Shown: piece by piece, positions 1,994 to 20,583 of the stretch
Numbering within the stretch: the first letter of the stretch is position 1
Layout of the letters: every line of letters begins with the position of its first letter
Source: Candidatus Helarchaeota archaeon
Lineage (GTDB): Archaea; Asgardarchaeota; Lokiarchaeia; Helarchaeales; RDOG01
DNA: 64,000 bases
Direction: 5' to 3'
Assembly: GCA_019058315.1 (NCBI GenBank)
Contig: JAHPZH010000008.1
Location: forward strand, 1-64,000
The notes under the pieces: generated by a model
What the model was told of the DNA's origin: nothing
The model's input: the letters and a program-made list of their open reading frames with translations, nothing else
Databases searched by the model: none
Position numbers and translations under genes: made by a program

Positions 1994-4900
1994 TATCGTC
2001 TTATCTTCATTAAAAATTTCCTCATATATTTCAGTTGCCATGTCACACAATTCTTCATCGTTTCTTAATATTTCAAACAATTTTTTAAGTTTTGGATTTT
2101 TAACATCTTTTAATTCGATTAAATTACATACCAAGTAATTTTTTATGGGATAATATCTATCTTTAATAAATTCTGTCAATAACGGATAGACTTTCTCAAA
2201 ATATTTTTTCCCAATTTCTATTAACGCTTCAATAACTGCACCACGAACGTGTGGGTTTTCATCTAATATAACAATTTTCAATAAATTAATCACTTCTTCT
2301 GGAAAAGACTGTCCTAATTTTCCTAATCTATTAGCTGTTATAATTCTCACAAAAGATTCCTTATTATGTAAGAAATCAATAAGTAATGGTTTAACATCGT
2401 TAAAATGCATCTTTCCGATTTCGATAATACTTTCAATAATAGCATTTTGTACTTCCTTCCATTCTATTCCCGTTCTGATACAGTAACTTGTATTTTCAGG
2501 GTCTTCAAATATCTCTTGAAACAAACTTAAAATTTTCTGGGGTTCATATATTGCAAATTCACGGAGAAGATTAATAGTTAATTCATAAGACTCTCTCTTT
2601 TTTATAGCTTTTTTAAAGAATGGAGAAGTCTTATTTATCTGTTTTACACCAGTAACATATAAAATAAATAATATATTTGAAATAATACTTGGAACAACCA
2701 TTGGATCTTCATTTTGCATAATTCGTTCCAAGGTTGGAGAAATAAGTTCGAAATTTTCTTTTCCAATTTTTCCAAATATATAAGAGATAATTTCTCGCGT
2801 TGGAACTTCAACTTCCAAGAATAAATCTTCAAATAGTGGAATTAAGAATACTACATCATCAAAATAATGTTCGAAAATCGCTTCAAAAATTCCCTCCCAG
2901 TATTGTACATGACCATAAATTATTTTTTCTCCCCGCAATTCAAAATAGGGCTTAGTTCTTTTTAAGAAATGTTTTATATTAATTCTTTTTAATTGGCTAT
3001 ATTTTTCAAGTAATTTATTAATAATCCGCAAATAGAAATCTTGAAAATAAGTCAAGGATAAATTTGGAATAAAACAAAGTGTTAAAAGTAAGACCCTTTC
3101 ATTAAAATTGAAATCACAAAACCAATTTTTAACCGTTCTTTTAATATATTTTGCATTTTCAATTGCTTTATGTAAAGTGAGTTTATCTGTTAAAACTTTT
3201 TTCAATTCCTCTTCGACAAATTCTTTATAATTATGTGGAAACCTCAAGTTGTGAATAATATCATTTTTTACTTCATTGGCATAGTTATATTCTTTCTTGT
3301 CAATAGTCTTCTTTTTAAAATAATATTTTAAATGATTTTCTAAAATCTGATATAAATGATTATCTGAATATGATTTTTCTACCTCCAGAACAACACTTAA
3401 ATCATCAATTTTCGATTTTGGATATTCAGCAAATCTTGTCCTTCTTCTCTTAACTGATTCTAATATTTCAACTCTTGTGGTCAGAATGACATAGTTATTA
3501 AAAATGGGATTTGAAATATTTAATATTCTTCTAAATTTATCACCTTTTGAAAGATCAAGAGTAGTACTACCAAAATAATCATCAAAAATTATAATTGCAT
3601 TTCTAAAGGCATTATAGTCTATATTTGAGCTGGGTTTAATAAAAAATAATTGATTTATATTTTTATTTTTTTGTTTTATATCAAATGCAAGATACATTGC
3701 AGTTGCAGTTTTTCCAATATTTGCTGGTCCTGATATAAGTAAAAATCTATTTTTTAATAATTTTTCAATCATACTTTGATAACCTTCAGGCTTGACGTAT
3801 ACATCTTCTACTCTTCTATAATCGATATAATCGGGATGCTTATCATTAAGTTCTAGTGTTTTTAATTGCTCACTCAATTCTATTTTTAATTCTTTCTTTG
3901 CAACCTTTGAATCGGTGAAATCTAAAGTCTTAATTGAATGTAAAAGAAATGCCCCCACCACATCCGCTGCATAAGGTTGCCATTTTTTATCGTGATCAGG
4001 TTTTTTATATGTATCACCAAAATCTGAAATTGCCCTTACTACCAAGATTTCGGGTCTGACTTCCGTAATTCCTCGGAGTATTGGGTATGCTGCGCCTGCG
4101 CTCTCCATCTCAACCCCTGCGATTTTAAGACTCTTCAATTCTTCAGAAAGGTATTTTCTAAGATTTGATTCTGGATCTCCGCTAATCTTTTCACCACTTG
4201 CAATTGAATACGCCCAATGGCATGTTTGAATATTTTTATTTTCTTTAGGTCTAGAAATCGTAATTTCATCAGTCCAATTTGGATTAGTACCCTCAAAATA
4301 TGATCTTAGTCGTTGACGAACCCAGCTACTTGCGGGATAAACTCTAGGTCTATAATCAATATTCCCATTTTGTTCTTTCTGAATTTCATAATAAATTATC
4401 TGGTCTGCAACAATAATATCACCTAATTGAAGGTGAGAGAACCTTTCCTTTAATCCACCAGCAATTCCACATACAATAAAAATTTTTGGTTTAAATTTGT
4501 TTAAAAATTTAGTTGTCAAAGTACTTGCTGAAATATTTCCGTACTCTGGTAGCGAATAAATCGCAATTCTTATTTTTTGCCCATTAAAATTAGTAATTTC
4601 CCCAAAATTTACAATATATTCTCCAAACTGGGCAATTTCTTCAACATTTTCAAGTCTATTAATTATTGGTTTCAATTCTAAAATCATTGGTGTCAATATT
4701 AGGATATCAATACTTTGTTCTTTATCCAAAATCCCTTCATTTTTTTCTATAAAGACTTCATGTATTGCACCTATACCTCTGTTGTAGATTTTTTCATGTT
4801 CTTCACTTAAAGAATTATCCTCGAGTTCTAGTTGATCTAATTTAACAAGTCCCATTAATCCCCCTATTTTAGTGATTCGATTTGATTTTAAATATAAATG

Positions 4901-5548
4901 TTTTAATTCTAAATTTTTACTTAACCCTTGTATTTTTCTAATTTTATTTCCCCTAAAATTTAACACTTTTAATTGTGCCAAATTTTCAATACCTTGTATC
5001 TTAGACAAATGGTTGTTATTAATGTGTAATCTTTCTAACCGTGATAAGTTTTCTAATCCTTCTATTTGCGTTATTTGATTCCAACCTAAGTTTAATTCTT
5101 GTAAATTAGGAAGGTTTCTTAAATTTTCAATTTTTTTAATTTCGTTTTTATAAAGCCATAATATTTCTAATTTAGCTAAATTATCAAATCCCTCTATTAT
5201 ATTTATTTTGTTATTGTTAAGGTCTAAAGTAATTAAATTATTTAGCTTTTCTAGACCCTCTATTTTATTAATGCTATTTCCTCCCATGTATAATTTTTCT
5301 AATCGTGAAAGTTCGTCTAACCCTTCAATTTTTCTAATAGAAGTCATACTTAAATTTAATTCTTTTAATTTTGTAAAAAAACGAATATCTTTTGGAATTC
5401 TTTTTAAAAGAATATAACACAAATTGAGACTGATTACAAAGTTCTTTTTATCAAATGCAAAATTTTCAGACTTTAGATTAAATTTTTTAATTATTTTTTT
5501 TATGTACTTCTTTTCAGGATATTTTTTATAATCTATCACTAATATCAC
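1988..5548 (-). CDS. Multidomain LRR - PNP/MTA-SAH nucleosidase - STAND NTPase (nSTAND3-like) - HEAT repeat protein
   Basis: ~9 SDS22-type LRRs (LxLxxNxIxKIEGL, aa ~60-250); PNP_UDP_1 motifs GIAGG, LGDIIVA, IASGEK, VEMESAG, VRAISD; Walker A GPANIGKT; Walker B IIIFDDYFG; C-terminal HEAT repeats (SFVRIITANRLGKLG, PHVRGAVIEALIEIG). Confidence 0.85.
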   Translation of the reverse strand: MILVIDYKKYPEKKYIKKIIKKFNLKSENFAFDKKNFVISLNLCYILLKRIPKDIRFFTKLKELNLSMTSIRKIEGLDELSRLEKLYMGGNSINKIEGLEKLNNLITLDLNNNKINIIEGFDNLAKLEILWLYKNEIKKIENLRNLPNLQELNLGWNQITQIEGLENLSRLERLHINNNHLSKIQGIENLAQLKVLNFRGNKIRKIQGLSKNLELKHLYLKSNRITKIGGLMGLVKLDQLELEDNSLSEEHEKIYNRGIGAIHEVFIEKNEGILDKEQSIDILILTPMILELKPIINRLENVEEIAQFGEYIVNFGEITNFNGQKIRIAIYSLPEYGNISASTLTTKFLNKFKPKIFIVCGIAGGLKERFSHLQLGDIIVADQIIYYEIQKEQNGNIDYRPRVYPASSWVRQRLRSYFEGTNPNWTDEITISRPKENKNIQTCHWAYSIASGEKISGDPESNLRKYLSEELKSLKIAGVEMESAGAAYPILRGITEVRPEILVVRAISDFGDTYKKPDHDKKWQPYAADVVGAFLLHSIKTLDFTDSKVAKKELKIELSEQLKTLELNDKHPDYIDYRRVEDVYVKPEGYQSMIEKLLKNRFLLISGPANIGKTATAMYLAFDIKQKNKNINQLFFIKPSSNIDYNAFRNAIIIFDDYFGSTTLDLSKGDKFRRILNISNPIFNNYVILTTRVEILESVKRRRTRFAEYPKSKIDDLSVVLEVEKSYSDNHLYQILENHLKYYFKKKTIDKKEYNYANEVKNDIIHNLRFPHNYKEFVEEELKKVLTDKLTLHKAIENAKYIKRTVKNWFCDFNFNERVLLLTLCFIPNLSLTYFQDFYLRIINKLLEKYSQLKRINIKHFLKRTKPYFELRGEKIIYGHVQYWEGIFEAIFEHYFDDVVFLIPLFEDLFLEVEVPTREIISYIFGKIGKENFELISPTLERIMQNEDPMVVPSIISNILFILYVTGVKQINKTSPFFKKAIKKRESYELTINLLREFAIYEPQKILSLFQEIFEDPENTSYCIRTGIEWKEVQNAIIESIIEIGKMHFNDVKPLLIDFLHNKESFVRIITANRLGKLGQSFPEEVINLLKIVILDENPHVRGAVIEALIEIGKKYFEKVYPLLTEFIKDRYYPIKNYLVCNLIELKDVKNPKLKKLFEILRNDEELCDMATEIYEEIFNEDKTIS
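4742..5548 (-). repeat. Copy A of duplicated ~270-codon LRR module (inverted partner at 20733-21539)
   Basis: Gapless protein alignment from MIL..DYKKYPE to RGIGAIHE.FIEK; 40-nt identical stretch 5049-5088 (rc) = 21193-21232. Confidence 0.9.
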
Positions 5549-5647: not shown

Positions 5648-6724
5648 TTATTTAAATTGTCCAAATAACATAAATTCAATTCTTTCTGTAAGCTCGTGAA
5701 ACCCACAAGCAATAGAAATCCTTAATGCTTCTTCTAGACAATCAAGTGCTCTTTTTAATTCGTTCATTTGCTGAAAAATAAGAGCAAGAATAGTAAGTTC
5801 TTCAACTACATCTTCCATATTTCGTTCCCTGCGATCTTTTTCTAGGATTTTTTCAAAATATTTTAATGATTCTTCGAAATTATCATTAAATAGAGAAACA
5901 AACCCATTCATAAACTTATCAAATTTCCCTTTATTATGTTGATATTCATGATCTTGTGGAATAAACACAAAAATAAGAAGAATTATTATTGTGATGAATA
6001 AAAGACGTAACTTTGCATCAGCTAAGTCTACTATTGTATAAATACTTGAACTCTTAGTTGTCAATTGAAATTCATCATTGTTAATTATTTTAATACAATC
6101 AAGTGAAGGAATATGGTAAATGTCCTCGCTCGTTAAATCATTTAATAGCTTTATAAATTCCCCATTAATATTAAATAGTATTTTCATAGCGTTTTCATAA
6201 TTTAATTCCCCAATTTTATCGACTTCACCATCTGATAATATGATTTTTGCGATTTTTATTAGTACAAAAGCAAATATTTCTTTACAATCAAGGAAAATCT
6301 CGACCTCATCTTTTAATGCCGTTTTACGTTGAACTGTTTTTTGATGGTCATTTATATAATCTACTAACTTATCATATTTTGAAAAAAAGAAGTTTGACTC
6401 TTGTTCTCTAACTTTCATTTGATTTACAAAGGAATCTTCAAAATATTTATTAATTAAATCATAAATTTCTCTCGGTGTCAATTCTCCAAAAATATCAGAA
6501 TCTTCTTCAGAGTCTAACCAATCGATTTTCAATTTTTGAGCTGGTCTCTTATAATAATTAATAAAATCCTTGAGATATTCTCGAAATGGTTCTTTAAATT
6601 TATTATAATCAATATTAACATCATCGAAAGAGTTTTTTTTATTATTTCTCTTCATACAGCATTTTTTATATTTTTTTCCACTACCACATGGACAGGGGTC
6701 ATTTCTTTTTACCATTTTGTTCAA
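5648..6724 (-). CDS. SEC-C zinc-motif protein with C-terminal TPR-like repeats
   Basis: RNDPCPCGSGKKYKKCC SEC-C motif; C-terminal FEESLKYFEKILE / LKRALDCLEEALRIS TPR-like helices. Confidence 0.75.
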   Translation of the reverse strand: MNKMVKRNDPCPCGSGKKYKKCCMKRNNKKNSFDDVNIDYNKFKEPFREYLKDFINYYKRPAQKLKIDWLDSEEDSDIFGELTPREIYDLINKYFEDSFVNQMKVREQESNFFFSKYDKLVDYINDHQKTVQRKTALKDEVEIFLDCKEIFAFVLIKIAKIILSDGEVDKIGELNYENAMKILFNINGEFIKLLNDLTSEDIYHIPSLDCIKIINNDEFQLTTKSSSIYTIVDLADAKLRLLFITIIILLIFVFIPQDHEYQHNKGKFDKFMNGFVSLFNDNFEESLKYFEKILEKDRRERNMEDVVEELTILALIFQQMNELKRALDCLEEALRISIACGFHELTERIEFMLFGQFK

Positions 6725-6738
6725 TCCTTTATTTTTTG

Positions 6739-7617
6739 TTATATCTTATCAATCAATCTTCCACAATATTCACACCTGCAAGGTGGTCTTGTTTCTAGCG
6801 GAGCACCGCATTCGGGGCATTTTACACCAGAAATTATGGTTTCTCTTGGTTGAGAGGGGGTCGTTGAAACTATAGGTGTGCTTTCCTTTTCTACCACACT
6901 TTTCCGCCGAGTTATTATCAAAATTACTGCTATTATAATACCTATTAAGGCAATAATTCCGATTATAACTCCTAATAGAAGGGGAGTCGAATTATTAGTT
7001 CCAATTAGATTGCTTAATAAAATAAGTGTCATCAGATCTGTATATGGATCTGGTAAATCCCCAATAAACCCCACTTTGTAATCCAATGAGAGTATTGGTA
7101 TGCTTATACTTAAAGCATGAATAACCAAATAATATGTATCAACTACCGTTATTTCATAGTTCATCGAACCATAAGATTCGTAAGGACCGCCACCCACATT
7201 ATCACAATATATTTCCACTAAAGGTGTGTATGGTTGAGCTGCTTGAAGCTGTGCATATTGTGCTGAATTAAGAAATTCTATATGTAATAGACCAGTTCCA
7301 GTTACCACATTTTGGCAATAAAACGTTAAATTATCCCCGACTTGAAAATTGGAGACATCATAATCAACTGAAATTGCAGAGGTTAAAGAAGCCCAATAAT
7401 AAGTGGCATTACTAATATTTTCATGAATATAGTCGCCAACATATAATTGTTTAAAAAGAGGGTAATATTTCGCATTTGAGCTAAGTAGATAGTCCGACTT
7501 TTCCGAAATTAGTGTTATAGGATTCATTGAAGACATAATCAAAGGTAGTATTGGTAATATAATTAATAATAGACCAATTAATTTCTTATTTGTACCAATT
7601 TTTGGTATTCGACCCAT
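6739..7617 (-). CDS. Membrane protein: N-terminal signal/TM, extracellular domain, TM, cytoplasmic zinc ribbon
   Basis: Hydrophobic LIGLLLIILPILPLI; TM LLLGVIIGIIALIGIIIAVILII followed by RRK; C-terminal CPECGAPLETRPPCRCEYCG; SD GGAGG upstream. Confidence 0.7.
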   Translation of the reverse strand: MGRIPKIGTNKKLIGLLLIILPILPLIMSSMNPITLISEKSDYLLSSNAKYYPLFKQLYVGDYIHENISNATYYWASLTSAISVDYDVSNFQVGDNLTFYCQNVVTGTGLLHIEFLNSAQYAQLQAAQPYTPLVEIYCDNVGGGPYESYGSMNYEITVVDTYYLVIHALSISIPILSLDYKVGFIGDLPDPYTDLMTLILLSNLIGTNNSTPLLLGVIIGIIALIGIIIAVILIITRRKSVVEKESTPIVSTTPSQPRETIISGVKCPECGAPLETRPPCRCEYCGRLIDKI

Positions 7618-7719: not shown

Positions 7720-8916
7720 TTAAGCATCAGGAAGCCAAAATTCTATACAATAATCTTCTAATAATTGTATTTTCTCTGTTTTTGTCTTTAATTTTTTAAA
7801 TTCACTAACTAAATCAAGACCAGCTCTTTTTCTTTCAAACTCATTCGAGTAAAAAGGGAGTCTATATCTGATACATATATTTTGGCGTCGAATATGTCTT
7901 CCAAACTTTCTTACTTTACGATCATTCCACCCAGTCTTTTTATGTATATAGTAAGAAGTGTCCTTCTGATATTTTCGATGTCCGTCAAATTTATCATATG
8001 TCTGGTCTAATGGTCGATACCGACAATTTGTAATTTGAATTTTCCATTCCCAACACTTTTTTCTTTTTTTTTCCATTTCTTCAAAGGGTATCTCAAAATT
8101 ATATAACATAAATATAGATATTTCTCTTTTTGGAAATTTCGCTTCTAGCAATAAATCGATTTGTTCTTTTATTTCTGGATATTCATCATATCCCCTATCC
8201 CAAGCTATCTTAGGGTATACAAATCCTGCCTTTTTTAATTTTTTAGCAAGATATGGTTTTTTCTGAAGAATTTTTCCATCAAAGCCACATTGTGCCTCAC
8301 ATCTCTTAATCTGTCCATGTGTCTTTAAAAAAATTAGCTCATTTAAAATCCTTGATATATGGGGATTACCCAATAGATTATCATCATAAAACAAAACAGT
8401 ATCCTTAAAAACTTCTCCATCAATAGAAGCCTTACATTTAAACTCCGGTTCAATCTTCCAGGCTCCACAATATGAACATTTTCTGATACAACCTCTACTA
8501 GAATGTAAAATTTGAGTTTTATTTCCATTTCCTAATAATTCATACAATGGAATACATTTTTCAGCCTCTTCATGTCTCCCGACAAATACTTCATCACATT
8601 GAGTATATTCCTTACAATGGTGCGGCATCAAAGTTGCATATATTCCACCAACAATAATTTTTGCATCTGGAAATAATGAACGATAATGACTTACTGCCTC
8701 TTTTACATATTTAGACCAATATGTATATTCTGATGTAACATTGATTTCTTGGGGATTGAACGGAATTTCATTTATATCTAATAGACCTCTTGCTAAATAA
8801 ACTACATGGTTTTGCTTTTCATGATAAGCTCCAAGTTTTAATAATCCAATAGGAATATGTTTATTTCTTTGTTTCCCAGGTCTTGGAAATTTGGGCTCAA
8901 CCAATAAAATATTCAT
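7720..8916 (-). CDS. Cobalamin-binding radical SAM protein, last gene of DISARM-like operon
   Basis: B12-binding N-terminus (ILLVEP...PIGLLKLGAY...IIVGGIYAT); SSRGCIRKCSYC CxxxCxxC motif; FYDDNL; start overlaps drmE-like stop (ATGA 8913-8916). Confidence 0.85.
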   Translation of the reverse strand: MNILLVEPKFPRPGKQRNKHIPIGLLKLGAYHEKQNHVVYLARGLLDINEIPFNPQEINVTSEYTYWSKYVKEAVSHYRSLFPDAKIIVGGIYATLMPHHCKEYTQCDEVFVGRHEEAEKCIPLYELLGNGNKTQILHSSRGCIRKCSYCGAWKIEPEFKCKASIDGEVFKDTVLFYDDNLLGNPHISRILNELIFLKTHGQIKRCEAQCGFDGKILQKKPYLAKKLKKAGFVYPKIAWDRGYDEYPEIKEQIDLLLEAKFPKREISIFMLYNFEIPFEEMEKKRKKCWEWKIQITNCRYRPLDQTYDKFDGHRKYQKDTSYYIHKKTGWNDRKVRKFGRHIRRQNICIRYRLPFYSNEFERKRAGLDLVSEFKKLKTKTEKIQLLEDYCIEFWLPDA

Positions 8917-11519
8917 TTTTTATCTTCCCTTTCATCATTTTCTTTAAAAATTTTTACCTTTTTAATATCTTGTATTATGTAAATACTATTCTCGATTTTT
9001 TTGTATAATTCAAATTCTTCTAGAGATAAATCAGACAACTTGATATTTTTTTCAAGTATTTGATTGACTAATTTGCTCAATTTTTTGCTTATAGCTATAT
9101 GGTATTGCTGGATCTTTTTACCTTCTTCGTGAATAAGTGTAAAATAATTGAGAAGAAAAGGTTCATTCATTATTTGTCCCAGATGGTATAAATCTTTCGG
9201 ATCTCTTGTATAAGTTCTATTACCTTGCACCCAAGATTTAAAAGCATCGTAACTTCTGGGACTTTTTCCTAATTTTTCGAGAAATCTTTTATAAATTTTA
9301 TAAAAATCTTTATATGTAGCAAAATTGTGCTCAAAATATTGGGCTAATTTCCTTGACCAAGTTTCTATTAGTTCATTGTCAATTTCATCTTCAATACCCG
9401 ATATTTCTAAGACCATATCTATAATGGATTTTCGTTCATCTTGATCAATTAAAATGAGAAAATATCCTTCTTCAAACACTCTTGGGAATCCAATGTTAAT
9501 CTTTTCTTCTCCTTTTTCCATATACATATAAGTTTTATCAATATGTAACCTTCGCTTACCTATCTCTCCTGTTTTTTCATTTTTTAAAGTGACAACATAA
9601 TGATCTTTTTCAATAAATTCCCTTTCATATATCTTGTTATCAATTTTTTCTTTTTCTCTACGTAAATGATCTTCTGTTGATTCTTGTTCTTTTAATTCCT
9701 TAAATTTCTCATCTTTTTTTATAAGTTCATTAATAATATTTACAATGGTTAACTGGTCAGCCGATTCAATATTTTCGACCCTGACTTCTTGATTTTGGAT
9801 GCTTATTGCAGGCAATAATGCTTTTCTCCTCTCGAAATCTTCGAAGATAATATCTTTTGGAAGATTTAAATAATTTCTTATTTCTTCTAAATATGAAATA
9901 GTATTCCCTTCATCTTTGATGCTTAATTTTTTCACTAGATTGATTTGATCTTCAATTTGGGATTCATTTTTTCCTTCATAAGCGAAGAATAAAATTTCTT
10001 TCCAAGGTTTGAAAAAAATACTCATATATTTTGGTAGAATTGGTCCCGGAAGAATAAGTATTGACCTTGAAGTAACTTTACTTGAAGTATCCCAAGATGA
10101 TTGTATCTGTCCGAGAGTCTTTACGCATATATTTTCAATTATTTTTTTCAGCTCTACTTCTAAACTTCTTTTTTCTAATTGATTGGCTACGATAATACAA
10201 TCATTATTTTCTATTTTTGATAAAAAATCTAATAAACAATAATTTTTTGATATTCTTGTGTATGAATGGGGTTCCCAAAAGCGTTTGCAATCTTTCAATT
10301 CCACATACATACAATAAAATTCTCGAAGAATTGTGGATAATATTTCTTTAATCTTAGAATCTCCCATAGATTTAACTATGACATGAAAATCTTTCAAGAA
10401 TACATCAATTTCTCTAGTAGTCCATTCGTTTTCAATACAATATCTAGCTTTGAATTTATCAGGATTAATGAAAAGATTGTAGATTTCAAAATATAAAGAT
10501 TTTAGCTTGAAAAATCCATACCTTAAATCTTCAGGGATTAGATTATGATTTAGTTCCGATATTTGATGCATTCCTTCGTTGAAATGATAATCAATATTGC
10601 CTTGGGGAACTGACTTTATAATGTTCATCTGTTTAATTTCGTGATAAAAAATTTCTTTATCTATATTTAAACGAGAAGATAGACCCAAATTCATTTTTAA
10701 AAAGTAGTTAGTTGATTTTCTATTTACATATTCATGACTTTTTAAAAATGAATGGCTATAGTGTAACATCAAAGCATCCAATTCGTTTTTTAAAGGAAGA
10801 ATAAATTCAGAATTAGGGTTAGAAAAATGAAGTATAAATTGAACATCTTTTTCTTCAATAATATTTATCCATTCCAAAAAAACATCCAACTTGGGACTTG
10901 AATATATGAATCGATCTATATTTTCAAAGATGATTACTTTAAAATTAAATTTAGAATTAAAATCCAAAGATTCATCATTAAAAATTAACTTATCAAAGGT
11001 GTATCTGATTCTAGAATTCCGATCTTCTGGAAAAAATAAGACTTTCGGGCGATCAGGGTTTAAATAAATATTTTTTAGATATTTCTCTTTTTTTTCTTGT
11101 AATTCTCTTAAAATTCTGTGGTCTGCTCTTGGAAGATAGAATTTTACTATTATATCATTATCCTTCATATAAGCAACTGGAACTTTATAAAAGATGTAAC
11201 CATTTTCATCAAGCAAATAATAATTTTGATAATGAAGGTCAAATGGGCTTTCATATTTTTCTGATGAAGATTTAGTAAAAACAAATACAGTCTTTCCAGT
11301 CTGTTTTGCAGCCATATAAGAGATTATTGAAATGGGATATAAAATTCCTGAAGGTATTGAAATGATGATGTTTCGTTTTCCAATTATATTGTTTAGAAGA
11401 TTTAGAGTAAATTTAGTGAGTGGACTTAGAGTATCTTTTAGGGAAATTTTCTCAAGATAACTTTCTTTAATTGGATTATAAAAATTAAGTGGAAAAGAAT
11501 CGTACCAACTTTTTAACAT
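8913..11519 (-). CDS. drmE: DrmE-like protein (DISARM class II accessory, degenerate helicase-like fold)
   Basis: 868 aa in operon with drmA/B/C; degenerate RecA-like elements (IIFENIDRF, ILILPGP); C-terminal WSRKL...SYDAFKSWV...RDPKDL region resembles DrmE family; call relies heavily on context. Confidence 0.55.
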   Translation of the reverse strand: MLKSWYDSFPLNFYNPIKESYLEKISLKDTLSPLTKFTLNLLNNIIGKRNIIISIPSGILYPISIISYMAAKQTGKTVFVFTKSSSEKYESPFDLHYQNYYLLDENGYIFYKVPVAYMKDNDIIVKFYLPRADHRILRELQEKKEKYLKNIYLNPDRPKVLFFPEDRNSRIRYTFDKLIFNDESLDFNSKFNFKVIIFENIDRFIYSSPKLDVFLEWINIIEEKDVQFILHFSNPNSEFILPLKNELDALMLHYSHSFLKSHEYVNRKSTNYFLKMNLGLSSRLNIDKEIFYHEIKQMNIIKSVPQGNIDYHFNEGMHQISELNHNLIPEDLRYGFFKLKSLYFEIYNLFINPDKFKARYCIENEWTTREIDVFLKDFHVIVKSMGDSKIKEILSTILREFYCMYVELKDCKRFWEPHSYTRISKNYCLLDFLSKIENNDCIIVANQLEKRSLEVELKKIIENICVKTLGQIQSSWDTSSKVTSRSILILPGPILPKYMSIFFKPWKEILFFAYEGKNESQIEDQINLVKKLSIKDEGNTISYLEEIRNYLNLPKDIIFEDFERRKALLPAISIQNQEVRVENIESADQLTIVNIINELIKKDEKFKELKEQESTEDHLRREKEKIDNKIYEREFIEKDHYVVTLKNEKTGEIGKRRLHIDKTYMYMEKGEEKINIGFPRVFEEGYFLILIDQDERKSIIDMVLEISGIEDEIDNELIETWSRKLAQYFEHNFATYKDFYKIYKRFLEKLGKSPRSYDAFKSWVQGNRTYTRDPKDLYHLGQIMNEPFLLNYFTLIHEEGKKIQQYHIAISKKLSKLVNQILEKNIKLSDLSLEEFELYKKIENSIYIIQDIKKVKIFKENDEREDKK

Positions 11520-12349
11520 AGTGTTATATCCCTCCCCCTCGAAAAAATTGCTTCAAAAATGTCAATTAAGTGTTGAACACCACTTCCACTAATTACTATA
11601 CCAAGTTCAAAATTTTTATTAAAGCTATTTCTCCTTATCTCCCCACTTCCTATATAGGCTTCTATATTATCTGAAATAATAAATTTAGCGTGAATACTAC
11701 TTGTGACTCTCGTATTTTTTATTGAATAATGATAATCTTTTATTATGATTCGACTGAGAACTTTTTCATCCTCTATAGCTTTAAATAATCCTATAATTCT
11801 CTTTCGTTTCTTATTCTGAAATAATTCTCTTGTCAAAATTTTAATATTTACGCCTTGAGTTGCTTTCGAAATTAACTGTTCAGAAAAGACAGCTAATCCA
11901 TTGTATTCTAAAAAAGGTGAACAGATTCTGATAGTTGAATTTGCAGAATCAAACAATCTCTTAATTTCACTCTTTAAAAGACTATAATAAATTTGTTTTT
12001 CTTTAAAATGTTCTTTAAGACCATAAATATCGTAAATGGGAAAAGAAAGGCATAAACATTTAAGGAAAAATGATAATTTTTTTAATACGGGCATTTTAAT
12101 TTGTTCTAGTTGAGGTCGGACTTGTAACTCATTTTTCTTAAAGGGAAGATTTATATTCCGTAATTTTAATACACCTTCTTTTATAAGATACTGTAATGCC
12201 ATCCCCTTTGATTCTTCATTAAATTGGTTTAATTTGGAGTTTTCTAGTATATCTTTAACTTTGATAATTGGTTTATCTTCGAAGAGTAGGAATAAAATTT
12301 TAATAATTTCTTCATATTCCTCCCAAGGAAATATTACCACCCCCAACAT
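11513..12349 (-). CDS. drmC: Phospholipase D-family nuclease (DrmC-like)
   Basis: IRICSPFL; single HKD motif IHAKFIISD followed by AYIGSGE...NFELG; overlaps neighbours. Confidence 0.8.
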   Translation of the reverse strand: MLGVVIFPWEEYEEIIKILFLLFEDKPIIKVKDILENSKLNQFNEESKGMALQYLIKEGVLKLRNINLPFKKNELQVRPQLEQIKMPVLKKLSFFLKCLCLSFPIYDIYGLKEHFKEKQIYYSLLKSEIKRLFDSANSTIRICSPFLEYNGLAVFSEQLISKATQGVNIKILTRELFQNKKRKRIIGLFKAIEDEKVLSRIIIKDYHYSIKNTRVTSSIHAKFIISDNIEAYIGSGEIRRNSFNKNFELGIVISGSGVQHLIDIFEAIFSRGRDITLC

Positions 12350-14250
12350 CTGGATTCAAAGCGATATTTCCCTAGGAATACATCCCTATCAAGAAATTGG
12401 TTAAACATAGTGCAGACAAATTCAGGAAGATAGAGACAGGCAAAACAAGCGCCCTTCTCGTGAATGCAAGTAGGATCGAGAGTACATTCTTGAATATCAA
12501 ACCTGATATCTTGGAACCAATTCCAAATCTCGTTTTCAAATACATATTTAAATCCACCTATGTTAATATTGCTAGTAGAATAAATAAAAAATGCATTTGT
12601 GCTTGGAAATATCATTTCTCCACACGACTGCTCATCCAATCCGGTATAGATAGATGACCTACGTATTAAAATATGCGAAAGTGTGTGTAAAAGGGTCTTT
12701 AAGTGTGAGTATGCTCGTGGATTATTTTCCTTTAAATTTAAAAAAAATTCAAAAAGTCTAGCTTTTGATGATGGAATTACCTCTATCAAGTGGTTTTCTT
12801 TTAGCCATTTACAAATTTTCATTTTATCCAAGATGAATATTATGCCCTCTGTCTGATATGGATACACATACGCTTCAAATTTATCACGATTGTTAAATGC
12901 AGACCAAATTGGTTCGAAATGGGGAGGATTATTGTCTGGCTCGTACCACTTATGAACCCCTTTTATTAAACCATAACATGACAATAAAATATTAATATCG
13001 GATACGTAGATAAGTTGATCAACATAATATTTTTCTTTTATTTCACTTAAATGATCTGATTTTACTGCTCTTTTAATAGGATCCAAAATTTTATCGATAT
13101 AATCTTTATATATTATATTTTGAGAAGATTCTGCATTTAAGCCACCTATTAATGCTGCAAAATCATTGATTTCTCTAATTTGTTCTATTGATCTGTACTT
13201 ATTTTTCAATTCATTAACCACACTTTCAATCCTCGGCATATTCCAACGCTCTCTCCATGACCGTTCTCTTTCTTCATCAGAACTTAATTCGCTAAATTCG
13301 GGCCACTCCGTAAACATTACATTTCTCATTGCTTCATCATTATATCTTTCAATGTATGTATGAAGTTTCTCTAGAGAAATAGATTCATCACTCAATTGTT
13401 CGTGAAATTTCTTTAAAAAAAGACCAAGTAGAATATATTCAAGATCTTCCAAATTGATATTATCCGAATGTGGAATATCAATGGAGCTATCTGTAACTGG
13501 TAAAAATATAGCACCTTCTGTAACAGTAAGGGGGATTGGTTTTTTCTTTTCCGCATTTGAAATTATATTCCCCCAATCAATTTGGTCTTTATGTTCACAC
13601 CAAAACATAAAAATACTGACCCAATTGTTATAATTTTTGCAACCGTTTTTTTGGCATGATACTTCATATGTAGCTAAAGAATCTTTGCTCCCTCTTCTTA
13701 ATTTAACAGGATGATTCTTACAAGACCATTCAAGTTGCCTAATGTTACCGCACGTTTCACAATAATGCATGACACTAATTTGTTCATATTCACCATCACA
13801 ACTTGGGTTTTTACATTTTATGTCGAAATTCTTTAATCTATTCTTAAATTCGGGTCCACCAATTATGTATAAATTTCCGCACTCTTTACATGCAAAGCTT
13901 CTAGGAAAAATCTGAAAGGTTCCTCCATAATCAAGCTCGGATTCACTACCAAATTTTCCATGAGTTAGTTTGAATTTCTTCAATATGAGATCATTTATTC
14001 TTGCATCGGTCAGACCAGGAAGGGTCATTTGATAATCTGCGTGATTAATACGCCGACTGTAATCAGTTTGAATTCGATGAAATAGACGATTTTTAAGCCT
14101 TTCTTCATTATGTATTTTTAAATTTCGGTTATTTTCATCAGGAATTACATAGGTAATTTGAAATGTTAATTTTTTTCGATTAAAGATAAGACCTTTTACT
14201 GCATGGAATATTGCACTACTTCCTGCAAAAGAATTCTCAAAGGGACACAT
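12334..14250 (-). CDS. drmB: DUF1998/MrfA zinc-binding protein (DrmB-like)
   Basis: LLHTLSHILI; C-terminal CTLDPTC...GACFACLYLPEFVCTMFNQFLDR; N-terminal CxxC pairs; likely start ATG 14250 just after drmA stop with AAGGTGA SD. Confidence 0.85.
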   Translation of the reverse strand: MCPFENSFAGSSAIFHAVKGLIFNRKKLTFQITYVIPDENNRNLKIHNEERLKNRLFHRIQTDYSRRINHADYQMTLPGLTDARINDLILKKFKLTHGKFGSESELDYGGTFQIFPRSFACKECGNLYIIGGPEFKNRLKNFDIKCKNPSCDGEYEQISVMHYCETCGNIRQLEWSCKNHPVKLRRGSKDSLATYEVSCQKNGCKNYNNWVSIFMFWCEHKDQIDWGNIISNAEKKKPIPLTVTEGAIFLPVTDSSIDIPHSDNINLEDLEYILLGLFLKKFHEQLSDESISLEKLHTYIERYNDEAMRNVMFTEWPEFSELSSDEERERSWRERWNMPRIESVVNELKNKYRSIEQIREINDFAALIGGLNAESSQNIIYKDYIDKILDPIKRAVKSDHLSEIKEKYYVDQLIYVSDINILLSCYGLIKGVHKWYEPDNNPPHFEPIWSAFNNRDKFEAYVYPYQTEGIIFILDKMKICKWLKENHLIEVIPSSKARLFEFFLNLKENNPRAYSHLKTLLHTLSHILIRRSSIYTGLDEQSCGEMIFPSTNAFFIYSTSNINIGGFKYVFENEIWNWFQDIRFDIQECTLDPTCIHEKGACFACLYLPEFVCTMFNQFLDRDVFLGKYRFESRCWGW

Positions 14251-14251
14251 A

Positions 14252-17200
14252 TCAAGATTCACCTTCTTTAGTGTATTTATTAAAAATATGTTGATAAGCA
14301 CCGCTTAAGGAAAATGAAACCTCAGGTTGTATTCCTCTCATTCCATATTGAGTCTGGAAATAATAATCTTTTTGATTAGCTAATGCATTTGGGAAGAAAT
14401 CAATCACACCTGTGTAATTTGCTAAATAATTCAACCTCCTTTCTACTTCATTAGGAATTTGAGAAAGAATACGTTTCACGCCAATATGGTCTAAATGGGT
14501 ATAATAGGCCTTCTTTATGAATTCAATTAATTTCTCTCTATTTTCATTATTTTCAAAAATTTCATTCACATCCACTGTTCTATAAATGGGTCTTCCCATA
14601 AGATTGCTGAAATAATTTAATATACTCCCGCAAAAAATTGAAGTGAAGGTCTGTTTAAAACCTAGATTAGCCCATCTAGATAACGGAGTTCTTTCTACTT
14701 TATGATCTAACATTTCATGATATAATTCAAAATTCTGGTAATAGCTTAGATCCCGAACTCTATTTGGATAAAACCACATAAAAATGATTCCAACGAATTC
14801 TCTACCAACTCTACTATATGATTGGATGTATTCTGAAGTGTTACGAGTCATTCCTTGAAAAATCATTACATTCCATCGATTAATATCAACGCCATGGGAT
14901 ACCACACTTGTAGCAAAAGTAACATGTATTTTTTTGCCAAATACTGCTTCAATTTCATTAATAGCTTCCTTGATTTCGTCTAGTGAGTTATCTCCAGTTA
15001 ATGGTTTAGATACTATTTGTAATTCTTGAATTTTAGAAGTAACAACAGTATGTAGAAAATAATTCATGCCATGAACATCTGCTTTTTTTGTATGGTAAGT
15101 GAGCAAGCATTGATAATAGGATAACAATTCTAAGAAATCATCAACACTCATGCAATACTTTTTTGCCATCTCTTCTTTATTTTCTGATAAATATTTAAAA
15201 TAATCTGCTATATGGTGCAAAGTATGTAAAGATGCATATTGATTATCGCGCAAGTTAGGTTTCAAACCTAGTATAATACGCTGTGTCTGGATATCATCTT
15301 CAATTTTCTCATATTTAAAGAAAAAATCATGTTCACTGCCTTCCATTGGCGATTTTCCAGGAAATACAAAAACATCTTTCCCGTATAGTTGCTTGATTTG
15401 TTCCTTTACACCAGAGACTGTGGCTGTCAAGCCCAGATACTTGAATTCTTTGTTTGAAAATGAATTTAACATAGTATTTAACAGACTTTCAAAATGGGAA
15501 TCTATAGTGCCAAAACCTTCTCGTAACAAATGCATCTCATCTTGAATCATTAAAGAAGGACCATCACAAGGAGTTTCTTCTTCCATTCCTTGTTTTTTAC
15601 ATGTTTTATATCTTGTTAACTTCACTTCGCAAAAATCCATTAAAGGTACATAACCATGACCATCGGGACATTTGGATATTCGACCTCCAAGCAAGTTTTT
15701 AAACCTTCGGTTTGATGCCACACTTGCAAGTTTATCCACTGTCGAGACAATGAATGAAGGGAGAAATCGATATACTTCTTCGTTTGTATAATATAAATTG
15801 AATTGCTCATGACATTCCTTACATTCATGATATATGCTTTTTAGTTCCTTATTTATTTCTCGTATAACACCCCCCTTACAAAATGGACATTCGTCTAACA
15901 ATATTCCTTTGACTTCTTTTCCCTCTTCATTTAATTTCTTTATCTGTCTTATAGCATCCAGACTAAACCTTGGAAACTCATCTGATACACCAACGAAATA
16001 TCCAAGCGAAAAAGGTTCCCCTCCAATATCATTATTTTTTTTAATCTTCTCCGCCCAAATAATGATTTTGGCTATTCTATGCAATTGTTGAATCGACAAC
16101 ATTCTTAGGGGGAATTTAACAAATCCTGATACACCTCGATGCTTTCCCCTCAACCGATCCAAAAACATTTGAAAAATAGCAATGCCAAAATATGCTTCTG
16201 ATTTACCTCCACCCGTTTTTACGTGTAAGAGTTCAACTCTATGACGGTTTCTATTTGGAATAACAAGATCGGGAATTAGTGAGACAATAAAAATGATTTG
16301 GAATAATCGCCAAGTTTTAAAATTACTAGCATTCATAAATGTTTCTTGCATTAATCTAAATGCTTTCAGAGCCATTTCATTTTGTTTTAAAGTGTCAATA
16401 CCTGTCTGATAACTCGAGAGCACGGTTTCAAATTGCTTAATATTACATGAAAATTCTTCTTCACTATTTCGGGAATCCCCTTTATAAATATCTTGTAGTT
16501 TTTTCATTTCATGTTCTAAAGCTTCAAGTGTGGCAATACAATCTTCTGATTTAAGTTTTTCAAATTCAGCAGTTATCCCATTAAAAGAAGTTCTTGGTGC
16601 AAATTTTAACTGTTTAAATATTGCCCAATGTCTCGTCTGTATTAAACCATTTTTATAATCTGCTTGGCAATTTAGACACCTTAGCATGTTTTGCTGTTTA
16701 TATTTTATATCTTCGTATTCATATTCATATTCAAAAGGAATGATTTGAGTTTCTAACAATTCTATTTTTAAATGACAATTGAATAGAAAAGTTTCGTAAC
16801 TTTGATCCTTCTTAGTAACATTTATCATTCTTATTGTAATAATATCAGAATCTGCTGTAAATCTTTCCCGTTCAAAATGTATTTCTGCCTTCCAAAATAT
16901 TTTTTTTCGAGGTGAGGACTTTATATGTTCCGATAATTTTGCCTCAAAAACGTCCTTTGATTCCATCCAATCTTTTACAAATCCTTTTTTAGAAAATAAA
17001 TTTTCATTTTGATATATATCCTCAATATTATCCGTAAAATCGATTTCTTTATTACCTTCATCCTCTATTAGAAATTCAATTTTTGGAAATTTACAATCGT
17101 AACGTGTCCAAATCTCAGCAAAGCCAGGATCGGATTCCTTTTCCTCTAATTCAGGATTAGTTTTAATAGCATCTAAATAATCCTTCTGTTCGTCAAAATT

Positions 17201-17506
17201 GGGGTATACTCTTAAAAAGACACTACATGAAGGAGTAATCATGATGGAACTTGTTGTACCACTTGGTACTTTAAAATTTATAGAAAAACTATTATGCCTC
17301 ATTGCAGTTCTTGATTGAATTTTTGCTTGACCCGTTGGTTCACCCACCGCGTAATCTTTACTGGAATCAGCAAGTGTTCCTATTATAAAAAATTTAGATG
17401 GTTTAGTTAATAAGCGAAGACGTTTACATGATTGATGTGTCCCATTAAGTTTTTGTAACACATAAGTATAAAAATCCTCAACAAATTGAATTTGGTATTC
17501 ATTCAT
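14252..17506 (-). CDS. drmA: SF2 helicase (DrmA-like)
   Basis: WRLFQ Q-motif, KTGGGKSEAY, FPLRMLSIQQ, STVDKLA, QDEMHLL, TAT, ATSVVSHGVD, YIQSYSRVGR; likely start ATG 17506. Confidence 0.85.
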   Translation of the reverse strand: MNEYQIQFVEDFYTYVLQKLNGTHQSCKRLRLLTKPSKFFIIGTLADSSKDYAVGEPTGQAKIQSRTAMRHNSFSINFKVPSGTTSSIMITPSCSVFLRVYPNFDEQKDYLDAIKTNPELEEKESDPGFAEIWTRYDCKFPKIEFLIEDEGNKEIDFTDNIEDIYQNENLFSKKGFVKDWMESKDVFEAKLSEHIKSSPRKKIFWKAEIHFERERFTADSDIITIRMINVTKKDQSYETFLFNCHLKIELLETQIIPFEYEYEYEDIKYKQQNMLRCLNCQADYKNGLIQTRHWAIFKQLKFAPRTSFNGITAEFEKLKSEDCIATLEALEHEMKKLQDIYKGDSRNSEEEFSCNIKQFETVLSSYQTGIDTLKQNEMALKAFRLMQETFMNASNFKTWRLFQIIFIVSLIPDLVIPNRNRHRVELLHVKTGGGKSEAYFGIAIFQMFLDRLRGKHRGVSGFVKFPLRMLSIQQLHRIAKIIIWAEKIKKNNDIGGEPFSLGYFVGVSDEFPRFSLDAIRQIKKLNEEGKEVKGILLDECPFCKGGVIREINKELKSIYHECKECHEQFNLYYTNEEVYRFLPSFIVSTVDKLASVASNRRFKNLLGGRISKCPDGHGYVPLMDFCEVKLTRYKTCKKQGMEEETPCDGPSLMIQDEMHLLREGFGTIDSHFESLLNTMLNSFSNKEFKYLGLTATVSGVKEQIKQLYGKDVFVFPGKSPMEGSEHDFFFKYEKIEDDIQTQRIILGLKPNLRDNQYASLHTLHHIADYFKYLSENKEEMAKKYCMSVDDFLELLSYYQCLLTYHTKKADVHGMNYFLHTVVTSKIQELQIVSKPLTGDNSLDEIKEAINEIEAVFGKKIHVTFATSVVSHGVDINRWNVMIFQGMTRNTSEYIQSYSRVGREFVGIIFMWFYPNRVRDLSYYQNFELYHEMLDHKVERTPLSRWANLGFKQTFTSIFCGSILNYFSNLMGRPIYRTVDVNEIFENNENREKLIEFIKKAYYTHLDHIGVKRILSQIPNEVERRLNYLANYTGVIDFFPNALANQKDYYFQTQYGMRGIQPEVSFSLSGAYQHIFNKYTKEGES

Positions 17507-17649: not shown

Positions 17650-20583
17650 CTAATATAAAATGTTAATTATTTTATTTAAATATGAGATTATTATCCTCCT
17701 CACATTTATTACCGCTTTTCTATCCTTTATTTCATCATGTACTGAACCTACTCTAGAAGCATTAATAAATTCACAGCTGTCTTTAATTATTTTTATGTCT
17801 GCTTGACTGAAACTCTTTTTTATTTTATCTTTTAACTCATCTACAATAGGAGTTGACTTCTTATCTATATTTTTTATAAGATAAACCCATTGACCTAGTG
17901 TGATGGTTTTATTATATTTAAATACTTTTTTAAAATGGGTAGGGAGTGGTTTAAAATATTTTTGCGGTATTAGATTATTGTATTTCTTTAATACCTCATT
18001 TTTAAAATCAATCATTATTTTATCATGGAGTATATTTTCTAAACCCTTTGCATATTGCATTAAAATTGAAGAAAAATCCAGACCTATATTATCTTCCTTT
18101 AAATTTTTCACAAGATGTTCTGCTGTGTATAAAATACTTTTTATTTTATCAGATGTGATAGATTTTACGTTAATTATATCCCTTGCTAATTCTTCATACT
18201 CCAACTTCTTTAATTTTAAAGAATTTTTCTGATCTTCAGGAGCATATTTTATAGCCTTTTTCAAACATTCAATTGCTTTTATAAAGTTTAATTTGTAACT
18301 ATATGATGATCCCATATTTTTTAGAGCATTGACATATTTAGGATTTAAATCTAAAGCTTTTTCATAATATTCAATAGCTTTTTCGTGTAAATTTTGATCT
18401 GCGTAATTTGATCCCAGACTATTTAAAACCATTGCTTTAAAAATATTAGTATTTGCATTTGTTAACGCGATTTCAAAATTTTTTCGCCCCTCCTCAAAGA
18501 AGCCCAAATTCGTTAATTCAATGGAGATATCATTGTAGAAATTTCCTTTTGAATAATATTTAGGAATTATAGAGCTTAATTTGGTTATTATACTATCTAA
18601 AGTTTTTAAATGATTATTTTTTATTAGTTGTCTCAAGAAATCGCGAAGTAGATAATATAAATCTACCTCTCCTTCCATCTTCAATCTAATTGCTATTGCT
18701 ACATCTTTAATCCCTTCATCAATTTTTCCATTAATAATTTTTATAATACCTGGATAAATATAACCGTTAATTTCTTCTTTATTCTCTTTATTTAACAAAT
18801 TAAAATACTTTAAAGCTGAAGGAAAATCTCCTTTAGTAAAATACGTAACTCCTATATTGGTTAAAATCCGAAAATCTTTTTTTATTTGTTGTGCTTTTTT
18901 AAACCATTTAACTGCCTCATCAAATTGAAATGAGTTAAAAAGTTGAGTTCCTTTTACTAAATATCCGTCAAATTCTTTATTATTTTCAAAATCCTTCAAA
19001 AAATCTACATCTAATTTACCATCATCAAGTATAATCGCAGCATTTAATGAATTAAGCCTGTTATTAATATAACCTACTCTCTCACCCAATATATTTTCAT
19101 CATATTCTAACATTCTACTTAAATAAAAATATTCTTTTTCAAAATCTTTAATCCTCCTAAACGACATCGCCAGATTCATCAATATAGCAGCTTGTCCCAT
19201 CTTTGAATATTGATTTATTGAATCTTTTATAAGATTATATAACTTTTTTGCCTTTCTTACATTTCCAAGTTTATAATAAACTTCTGCAATATTTTTTAAA
19301 GTAATTAATATTCGATACCTCTTCAATTCTTTCTTTTCAGGACTATATTTCACATTCCTATAAATACCTCCAAAAGTTTCCACGAGTTTATCAATATTTT
19401 CCGGTTGATCAAGCTCATCTTGCATTAAATCTTCATCCATATTCATCAAAATATTTAAAGATTCGAAATAATTTATTAAGGCGTTTTTATAATCCCCTAA
19501 ATCTCTATGTGCTGTGGCTAAATTGTCATATCCTTGAAACTTATCTAGATCATTTCTACTCTTATCTAAGGAGAATTTTGCAATTTCTTTCGTTTCTTCT
19601 AGAAACCCATTGTTATACAAATAATAGTTTAAATTTTTCAATCCAATGAGTCCTTCTTCCTTACTATAGATACGATTTATAAAATCTTGATTTATAGCAA
19701 ATGGATATAAATCATTAATCATTTTCTCTTTTTGAGCAATACTCTTCTCATTAAACCAAATGGCTGAAGCAATCGATACAATATCATTAAAAAATTTATT
19801 TACGACCGCCATTTTTTCCAAATTAGGTTTTCCATATTCAGCTATGATATCATCAATAATTTCTTTATGAATAAATGAAGACAATTGTTTTGAAGATATA
19901 AATCTACTTAACATATGAGCTGATTGACGATAATTCCTTTGATAAAGTGGTTCAAATTTGATTTTTTTCGTAATATATCGAAAACCCATATATTTCCAAT
20001 GTTCGAGATGAACTGATCCTTTATATGGTGATAATGAGCCAAATAACATATAATCTACATTAATTCCGGTAAGATGATCAATATATAATATTCTTATAGC
20101 TTCAAATTCTAGATCATTTCCCTTTTTTAAAGCCTCTCTCATTTTAAATCTAAGAAAATTAAAAAGGACTTTTTGAATTTCTCTAGATTTAATGAGTCGT
20201 TCTTTATTATTATCATCAACTCTCGTTATGACTGGATGGAATTGGATTTTTTCTATATCTGTCTGATCCTTTGACTTTTCTTCTATTATATTAAAAATAT
20301 CCTCATTCACGTTATCAACATATTCACTTATTACCCTCTTAACATATTTTTTTACTTTTTTTTGTATTGTAGTATCATTCCCAACTTGTTCACACAGATA
20401 CAAGTTAAAACCAGGGTCCATTAACCTTCTTAATAAAAACACGTTATATAATTTTAAATGCATTAACAATTCTGGTTTCTTATCATCAGGTAACTCATCA
20501 AGTTGTTCTAATATCCTTTTATACCGATCAATGGTAAAAATTAACCATAAATTGTATTGAATTAAATCTAATTTTTTTGAAAT
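17650..20583 (-). CDS. TPR-repeat protein with C-terminal HEPN-like (RxxxxH) domain
   Basis: Many TPRs (e.g. LNSLGSNYADQNLHEKAIEYYEKALDLNPKY); C-terminus DFSSILMQYAKGLE...TLGQW...SRVGSVH; frame open upstream to ATT 20583 preceded by GGAGGT. Confidence 0.75.
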   Translation of the reverse strand: MSKKLDLIQYNLWLIFTIDRYKRILEQLDELPDDKKPELLMHLKLYNVFLLRRLMDPGFNLYLCEQVGNDTTIQKKVKKYVKRVISEYVDNVNEDIFNIIEEKSKDQTDIEKIQFHPVITRVDDNNKERLIKSREIQKVLFNFLRFKMREALKKGNDLEFEAIRILYIDHLTGINVDYMLFGSLSPYKGSVHLEHWKYMGFRYITKKIKFEPLYQRNYRQSAHMLSRFISSKQLSSFIHKEIIDDIIAEYGKPNLEKMAVVNKFFNDIVSIASAIWFNEKSIAQKEKMINDLYPFAINQDFINRIYSKEEGLIGLKNLNYYLYNNGFLEETKEIAKFSLDKSRNDLDKFQGYDNLATAHRDLGDYKNALINYFESLNILMNMDEDLMQDELDQPENIDKLVETFGGIYRNVKYSPEKKELKRYRILITLKNIAEVYYKLGNVRKAKKLYNLIKDSINQYSKMGQAAILMNLAMSFRRIKDFEKEYFYLSRMLEYDENILGERVGYINNRLNSLNAAIILDDGKLDVDFLKDFENNKEFDGYLVKGTQLFNSFQFDEAVKWFKKAQQIKKDFRILTNIGVTYFTKGDFPSALKYFNLLNKENKEEINGYIYPGIIKIINGKIDEGIKDVAIAIRLKMEGEVDLYYLLRDFLRQLIKNNHLKTLDSIITKLSSIIPKYYSKGNFYNDISIELTNLGFFEEGRKNFEIALTNANTNIFKAMVLNSLGSNYADQNLHEKAIEYYEKALDLNPKYVNALKNMGSSYSYKLNFIKAIECLKKAIKYAPEDQKNSLKLKKLEYEELARDIINVKSITSDKIKSILYTAEHLVKNLKEDNIGLDFSSILMQYAKGLENILHDKIMIDFKNEVLKKYNNLIPQKYFKPLPTHFKKVFKYNKTITLGQWVYLIKNIDKKSTPIVDELKDKIKKSFSQADIKIIKDSCEFINASRVGSVHDEIKDRKAVINVRRIIISYLNKIINILY

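Follow-up and report, generated by a model that had tools for sequence, protein, structure and literature searches.

A radical SAM protein in the methyltransferase position of a DISARM-like operon from a Helarchaeota archaeon may provide a DNA self mark

How does a DISARM-type restriction operon that encodes no DNA methylase distinguish self from foreign DNA? The question is raised by a 64,000-nucleotide stretch of a Candidatus Helarchaeota archaeon (assembly GCA_019058315.1, contig JAHPZH010000008.1, positions 1 to 64,000; hereafter the window), in which four DISARM-type genes are followed by a gene for a radical S-adenosylmethionine (SAM) protein, here called rSAM (P0001). Here, we show using profile searches, structural comparison of an AlphaFold model, phylogeny and gene-neighbourhood analysis that rSAM belongs to an unnamed, highly conserved family in which a [4Fe-4S]/SAM barrel is flanked by a Rossmann domain of the cobalamin-binding type and a basic C-terminal region, and that the first four genes constitute, as predicted from sequence, the restriction-type part of a DISARM-like operon. 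The rSAM gene is not confined to DISARM: as a promiscuous module it also occurs in at least five further types of cassette. On balance, we lean towards the reading that rSAM takes the place of DrmMII as an exchangeable module for marking self DNA.

The five genes lie on the minus strand. The first, drmA (14252-17506), encodes the SF2 helicase of DISARM and is followed by drmB (12334-14250), which encodes the DUF1998-type DrmA partner with a Cys-rich C-terminus, drmC (11513-12349), which encodes a PLD-family (HKD) nuclease, a drmE-like gene (8913-11519; 868 amino acids, aa) and, as the last gene of the operon, the rSAM gene (7720-8916; 398 aa). Read from the sequence, the TGA stop of drmA is separated by one base from the ATG of drmB (a 1-nt gap), drmB and drmC share 16 nt, drmC and the drmE-like gene share 7 nt, and the overlap between the drmE-like and rSAM genes is ATGA; both this reading of the junctions and the list of open reading frames agree with the initial annotation, which had described five abutting or overlapping genes on one strand. 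Upstream of drmA lies an AT-rich spacer of 143 nt, measured from the ATG at 17506 (a longer frame opens with TTG at 17533), and about 100 nt including a T-rich tract follow the rSAM gene. The base composition of the operon does not set it apart from the flanking DNA. A search of sequencing runs for the window stretch gave no RNA run among the matches listed, the sole holder being a sediment metagenome, the probable source.

Are the first four products indeed DISARM proteins? DrmA matches the DrmA model of PADLOC (2e-112) and DISARM_DrmAS of NCBIfam (1.6e-90), the latter with 304 bits and thus under the equivalog cut-off of 950, and its sole match in a sequence search of the PDB is DrmA in the DrmAB structure 7s9v (4.7e-46; PMC9142583). 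DrmB matches PADLOC DrmB (1.6e-26) and NCBIfam DrmB_fam (2.5e-17) and is not matched by the Pfam DUF1998 model; a profile of the DrmB clade again finds a single PDB entry, DrmB of the same structure (7s9v_B, 7.3e-16). DrmC is matched by Pfam PLDc_2 (1.1e-13) and PADLOC DrmC (1.7e-19), and its HxKxxxxD motif is intact and reads HAKFIISD. The drmE-like product passes the Pfam DrmE_C cut-off (9.6e-12; 45.4 bits vs 27 bits) and has no match in PADLOC, the DrmE models included; related loci have an orthologue at the equivalent position, and it is homologous to the 1060-aa fourth protein of a second operon form (hhalign 99.5%, E 9.8e-23, 741 columns). A class II-like DISARM core, as proposed in the initial annotation, is thus supported, and the unmet NCBIfam equivalog cut-offs for DrmA, DrmB and DrmC indicate a divergent DISARM branch, which occurs chiefly in archaea and anaerobic bacteria.

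Class 2 DISARM is given as DrmE-DrmA-DrmB-DrmC-DrmMII in the summary of Ofir et al. 2018 in PMC11529989. The operon in the window is similar in that DrmA, DrmB, DrmC and a DrmE_C protein are encoded together in one tightly packed operon of a defence island, but it differs in gene order (A-B-C-E-rSAM vs E-A-B-C-MII), in its radical SAM fifth gene and in the lack of a C5 or N6 methylase.

In the fifth protein the cluster motif CxxxCxxC corresponds to C143, C147 and C150 and is invariant in 54 sequences. Pfam matches are sub-threshold (B12-binding 4e-5, 23.8 bits vs the cut-off of 32.1; Radical_SAM E 0.089), although B12-binding is precomputed in Pfam on most of the homologues. PADLOC (PADLOC-DB v2) gives no match to rSAM and contains no model of the family, NCBIfam gives weak partial matches only, and a PDB sequence search with the family profile returned nothing under E 0.03. 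The AlphaFold model, with a predicted local distance difference test (pLDDT) score of 95.5, is structurally closest to AprD4 (6fd2; Z 24.4, root-mean-square deviation 2.8 Å over 331 aligned residues), followed by MgmA (9ccb; Z 23.2), RimO and MiaB (Z 19.8), TsrM (6wte; Z 19.1), OxsB (5ul2; Z 16.3), CysS (9n1b; Z 15.1) and TokK (7kdx; Z 15.0). Residues 1-119 align with corrinoid-binding domains (Z 10-12) and also with TsrM, MgmA, OxsB, CysS and TokK. The B12-binding signature includes SxL...GG, and rSAM has an invariant GG with T61-S62 about 29 residues upstream, which recall that part of the signature. From the fold matches, the architecture of rSAM is that of the B12-domain radical SAM enzymes (class B type), and together with the invariant cluster motif they support the earlier description as a radical SAM enzyme, though not its label 'B12-dependent'.

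The family differs in several respects from the class B radical SAM methylases with which it shares this two-domain architecture (Z 15-23): identity to them is 10-16%, rSAM is shorter (~400 aa), it has no sequence-detectable relative in the PDB and its best structural match is AprD4. The substrates of the known class B enzymes are small molecules or peptides and do not include DNA. Invariance in the core rSAM family extends to C107, C288, C298 and C348, and in a wider alignment C288, C298, H325 and C348, all in the C-terminal region, are kept in 61-72% of sequences; this pattern fits co-conservation, and these residues may form a second metal site. The median net charge of the C-terminal 118 residues is +12, and the isoelectric point of the family is about 9.2. 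More than 1189 homologues were found, mostly about 50% identical, with 68 representatives better than 1e-30 in a library clustered at 50%. They occur in Lokiarchaeota, Thor-, Odin- and Heimdallarchaeota, methanogens, anaerobic methanotrophic archaea (ANME), Thermoplasmatota, Bathyarchaeia, Chloroflexota, Bacillota, Nitrospirota and others. The taxa of the nearest homologues suggest an Asgard host. Among relatives the distribution is patchy, as expected of an accessory gene on an island, with a clear homologue (E 1e-60 or better) in 4 of 60.

Could such a protein act on a small molecule? Prokaryotic viperins are radical SAM enzymes of defence islands, and AprD4, the closest fold, has a small-molecule substrate, so that rSAM might make an antiviral nucleotide or another small molecule in a viperin-like manner. 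We regard this as very improbable. Viperin (5vsl) aligns over residues 131-348 at Z 11.0, that is, over the core barrel only and far under the Z of 19-24 for B12-domain enzymes and MiaB/RimO, and the PADLOC library of known defence proteins gives no match, which also leads us to reject rSAM as a viperin proper. Moreover, a maker of chain terminators needs no helicase or nuclease cassette, yet 63 of the 77 genome loci described below have a restriction-type cassette, and the viral carriage beside orphan methylases and the fusion to a methylase, also described below, fit poorly with it. On these grounds the antiviral nucleotide, which the initial annotation had offered as its second option, is disfavoured. 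A methylthiotransferase of the MiaB/RimO kind was likewise considered and rejected: the three N-terminal cysteines of these enzymes are absent and only C107 is conserved there.

Is there a DNA methylase that could serve the operon in the usual way? In a profile search of the genome, PF00145, PF01555, PF02384 and PF02086 have zero matches in the window (C9:1-64000), the closest lying at C9:101161, so that the reported absence of a DNA methyltransferase from the 64 kb stands for these four families. Many methylases are encoded outside the window. The sole C5 methylase of the genome (C10:6218-7183) lies on a different contig among housekeeping genes, with an LVIVD-repeat protein, a PEMT-like protein, LAGLIDADG proteins and TtuA as neighbours, and a role for it as a DrmMII acting in trans is unsupported. 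No drmMII is present in the orthologous loci either.

Does rSAM accompany DISARM-type genes elsewhere? We approached this from both sides. For the rSAM-anchored set, 79 genome loci were fetched, open reading frames were called and clustered, and cluster representatives were annotated; 77 loci contain a full-length rSAM. DrmA and DrmB, with or without DrmC, adjoin rSAM in 19 of these 77, mostly as DrmA-DrmB-DrmC-X-rSAM, where X is the DrmE-like or the 1060-aa protein. The closest relative of the window's rSAM (69% identity) is encoded after a DrmE_C gene, and the closest relative of its DrmB lies in the same five-gene operon. For the DrmB-anchored set, which was unselected for rSAM, the DrmB clade was aligned and 80 metagenome loci were fetched; those whose fourth gene was complete and followed by at least 1.2 kb were kept and dereplicated at 80% DrmB identity. 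Among the operons with DrmC, 15 have rSAM and one does not, against seven with and six without rSAM among those that lack DrmC (Fisher's exact test, p = 0.026, which is descriptive only since the loci are related). Where present, rSAM is nearly always encoded directly 3' of DrmE or the DrmE-like protein.

The single DrmC-bearing operon of the clade without rSAM is informative. In this locus (L159) a D12 N6-adenine methylase (L159:4207-5037, plus strand) follows DrmE after 40 nt, which indicates that the rSAM and methylase slots are equivalent; the sequence panel used for the loci detects no methylase in the other related operons. Taken with the 15 rSAM operons, every DrmC-bearing operon thus has a gene of modification type at or beside the post-DrmE position. 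Recurrent linkage of rSAM to drmABC, and its placement in the methyltransferase slot, are therefore borne out beyond the window.

Two variations on this layout were also seen. In seven loci (L158, L165, L169, L174, L175, L179 and L187) a shorter, 360-aa rSAM precedes a 480-aa DndB-like protein (Pfam DndB 4.9e-15; for example L175:11156-12604), giving a six-gene operon. Where the closest relative of DrmB is encoded (L205:1-6256), genes for a DUF499 protein and a DUF1156 protein, the latter a putative methylase, lie just upstream of the five-gene operon on the same strand; the pair is absent from the window.

The DrmB-anchored operons also bear on an alternative in which rSAM takes part in restriction as effector or co-effector, damaging or altering invading DNA by radical chemistry or supplying a killing activity where DrmC is absent. 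The seven dereplicated operons with rSAM and without DrmC would suit such a role, as would the basic C-terminus and the invariable co-transcription of rSAM with genes for helicase or ATPase motors. However, rSAM is retained in 15 of the 16 operons that have an intact PLD nuclease, its place is taken by a methylase in L159, solo viral copies lie beside terminase and orphan methylases, and one family member is fused to a Dam-type methylase, which is a modification enzyme. We therefore consider an effector role unlikely.

A recognisable cassette adjoins rSAM in the 63 of 77 genome loci mentioned above: 26 Pbe, 19 DISARM-type, six GHKL, four HerA, three SNF2, three DndB-HEPN and two ParB. The commonest partner is PbeA-PbeC-PbeD/DndE (PADLOC PbeA 8e-220, PbeC 3e-94). 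The GHKL cassettes consist of ATPase pairs, the HerA cassettes of trios, the DndB cassettes of a DndB/DpdB-HEPN fusion and the ParB cassettes of ParB_N proteins, while the SNF2 type reads ParB-like / small protein / SNF2 / ParB-like. Homologues of rSAM that are about 50% identical terminate the PbeA/C/D, SNF2, GHKL, HerA and DndB-HEPN cassettes. In a maximum-likelihood tree of 120 rSAM sequences the partner types are interleaved, with cross-type sister pairs Pbe/SNF2 (support 97), Pbe/DISARM (99) and SNF2/GHKL (99), and the window's rSAM falls in a clade of eight DISARM-E sequences with 96% support in the Shimodaira-Hasegawa-like approximate likelihood ratio test (SH-aLRT). The interleaving and the well-supported cross-type sisters indicate that rSAM has moved repeatedly between restriction-type modules and is not tied to any single partner protein. 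Carriers that are cultured or completely sequenced include Methanococcoides sp. FTZ1 (L062, DISARM form), Methanobrevibacter curvatus DSM 11111 (L060), Methanobrevibacter filiformis DSM 11501 (L051) and Koleobacter methoxysyntrophicus (P0048). One Thorarchaeota contig (L031:10001-12500) has tandem rSAM copies of 396 and 459 aa beside a HerA-type trio, and the two are distant on the tree.

The exchange of partners also limits what the substrate may be. As MiaB and RimO (methylthiotransferases of tRNA and ribosomal protein) and the protein methylase MgmA are among the nearest folds, the substrate of rSAM might be an RNA such as tRNA or one of the cassette's proteins, or rSAM might serve as a regulatory Fe-S/SAM sensor, with an indirect link to restriction. 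That the partners swap between unrelated families while rSAM remains about 50% identical speaks against a partner protein as substrate and for a common one; in addition, the cysteine trio of the methylthiotransferases is missing, as noted above, and the recurrent neighbours are all DNA-directed, namely DndB/DpdB-like, DndE-like and ParB_N proteins, which are DNA binders associated with DNA modification. An RNA, protein or sensor function thus appears quite improbable.

Further indications come from family members outside the cassettes. Eleven viral contigs in IMG/VR carry rSAM without a helicase, nuclease or ATPase partner: the gene stands directly before the large terminase gene (L100), after a DndE-like gene only (L099), or one to a few genes from C5 DNA methylases (L102-L108). 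In this solo carriage rSAM is like the orphan DNA methyltransferases and hypermodification enzymes of phages, from which it differs in enzyme class, and surroundings of terminase and C5 methylases are the usual setting of anti-restriction modification genes. By analogy with orphan methylases carried by viruses, the solo copies presumably pre-mark viral DNA. The plasmid collection contained no rSAM homologue and the GenBank phages only two distant matches, one of which, in Marinitoga camini virus 1, faces a HerA/NurA-like pair and is hence no orphan copy. In L101-L104 and L106 an unrelated 283-aa radical SAM protein (e.g. L101:5560-6411; Pfam Radical_SAM 2.5e-12, PHROG 'DNA repair photolyase' 1e-5) is encoded right after rSAM, and most of these five contigs have a C5 methylase a few genes upstream.

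The second indication is a fusion. In the 724-aa protein P0301 a full rSAM (50% identity over 96% of the query, with the cluster motif present) is followed by a D12 Dam-type (PF02086) methylase domain. The fused gene comes last in a Pbe-type cassette, and two assemblies, possibly from the same sample, have its frame intact (L206:9001-11175 and L207:2899-5073). Viral solo copies and fusion together point to DNA modification by rSAM. Just upstream of the P0301 gene there is another Pbe-like set, which includes a PF27807 Dnd-associated protein.

The same fusion is compatible with another arrangement, in which rSAM acts after or alongside a conventional methylase encoded elsewhere, for example by elaborating a methylated base or by relying on the methylase for targeting, and the operon depends on that methylase in trans. 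A D12 methylase directly upstream of rSAM in L050, D12 or N6_N4 methylases adjoining it in L012, L076, L059 and L078, and the many methylases encoded outside the window are in line with this, and CysS and TokK, structurally related enzymes of class B, build on methyl groups that are already present. A recognisable methylase lies within five genes of rSAM in 13 of 78 genome loci, but it is then mostly paired with its own DpnII, MutH/Sau3AI-like or NucS-like restriction enzyme. The other 65 loci and nearly all DISARM-type loci lack one at that distance, and most viral copies are not beside a D12 methylase. Dependence on a methylase in trans is therefore, in our view, rather unlikely.

How might self-marking by rSAM then proceed? 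In the model we favour, rSAM would act on host DNA and write a covalent mark by radical chemistry, the simplest being C-methylation of a base, possibly mediated by cobalamin. The mark would exempt self DNA from DrmABCE, as the DrmMII mark does in class 2 DISARM, and rSAM as an autonomous module would also serve the PbeA/C/D, SNF2, GHKL, HerA and DndB-HEPN restriction-type cassettes. Comparative genomics thus supports the DISARM variant with a radical-installed self mark put forward in the initial annotation; that rSAM modifies DNA, and that it does so by radical methylation, is what we infer from these comparisons. More tentatively, and with slightly more doubt than belief, we propose that the rSAM family as a whole is a widespread, unrecognised class of DNA-modifying enzymes in anaerobic archaea, bacteria and viruses, which would install a carbon-centred mark as self label for at least six restriction-type systems including DISARM. 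To write such a mark, the enzymes may, for example, methylate a carbon of a purine or pyrimidine or extend an N- or C-methyl group already in place.

Several observations weigh against self-marking by rSAM. The closest fold, AprD4, is a cobalamin-independent dehydratase that acts on a small molecule; since it carries a B12-type domain without using the cofactor, the fold of rSAM fixes neither cobalamin use, nor substrate class, nor methyl transfer. No DNA-binding or target-recognition domain is recognisable in rSAM. The methylases adjoining it in L050, L012 and L076 and the Dam fusion could mean joint action, and methylases in the loci were detected with a sequence panel, not the full Pfam, which divergent methylases can escape. 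The seven loci with rSAM and without DrmC fit an effector role too. Finally, six dereplicated DrmA-DrmB-DrmE loci have neither rSAM nor a nearby methylase, and the DISARM branch without DrmC and rSAM may work without a linked mark. Loci of this kind continue with housekeeping or other defence genes, not methylases; a sub-branch with DrmA, DrmB and DrmE only, without DrmC, rSAM or an adjacent methylase, comprises L131, L132, L135, L136, L138, L139, L142 and L162.

To our knowledge, no described restriction-modification-like system uses a self label made by radical chemistry. If the proposed function is correct, DISARM and at least five other restriction-type modules would use one, and the logic of restriction-modification would reach beyond SAM-dependent SN2 methylation, phosphorothioation and 7-deazaguanine. 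It would account for the avoidance of autoimmunity in DISARM, Pbe and SNF2 cassettes that lack a methylase, add a DNA modification that is possibly unrecognised by standard methylome calling, and provide a new polymer substrate for radical SAM enzymology. In the papers searched, we found no description of the rSAM family in connection with DISARM, including Asgard DISARM, with PbeABCD, or with DndB or DndD. PbeABCD was described as a CxC-type ABC ATPase-DndE system (PMC6459918; re-annotated in PMC10853773), in which the position after DndE is taken by the dndCDEA phosphorothioation genes or by cytosine methylases; a radical SAM partner is not mentioned in these two papers. In our set, rSAM comes after the DndE-like gene in the 26 Pbe loci, while the window carries a DISARM-type module instead.

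Finally, the operon in the window is flanked by other genes on the minus strand, some of which are related to defence. Directly upstream of drmA lies the gene for a 939-aa tetratricopeptide repeat (TPR) protein (17650-20469; PADLOC 'TPR' PDLC02907 1.7e-54), which is not conserved beside other DISARM-type loci and is thus probably a separate defence gene. On the other side, a SEC-C-motif and TPR protein (5648-6724) and a 292-aa membrane protein with a C-terminal CxxC...CxxC ribbon (6739-7617) are encoded between the operon and a gene for an 1186-aa protein (1988-5548). As none of these four genes recurs in related DISARM-type loci, we do not count them as members of the operon. The 1186-aa protein, encoded ~2 kb downstream of the operon, combines leucine-rich repeats, a PNP_UDP_1 nucleosidase-type domain, an nSTAND3 NTPase and HEAT repeats, matches the PADLOC 'PN-superfamily' effector (6e-26) and is a predicted STAND-type immune sensor.

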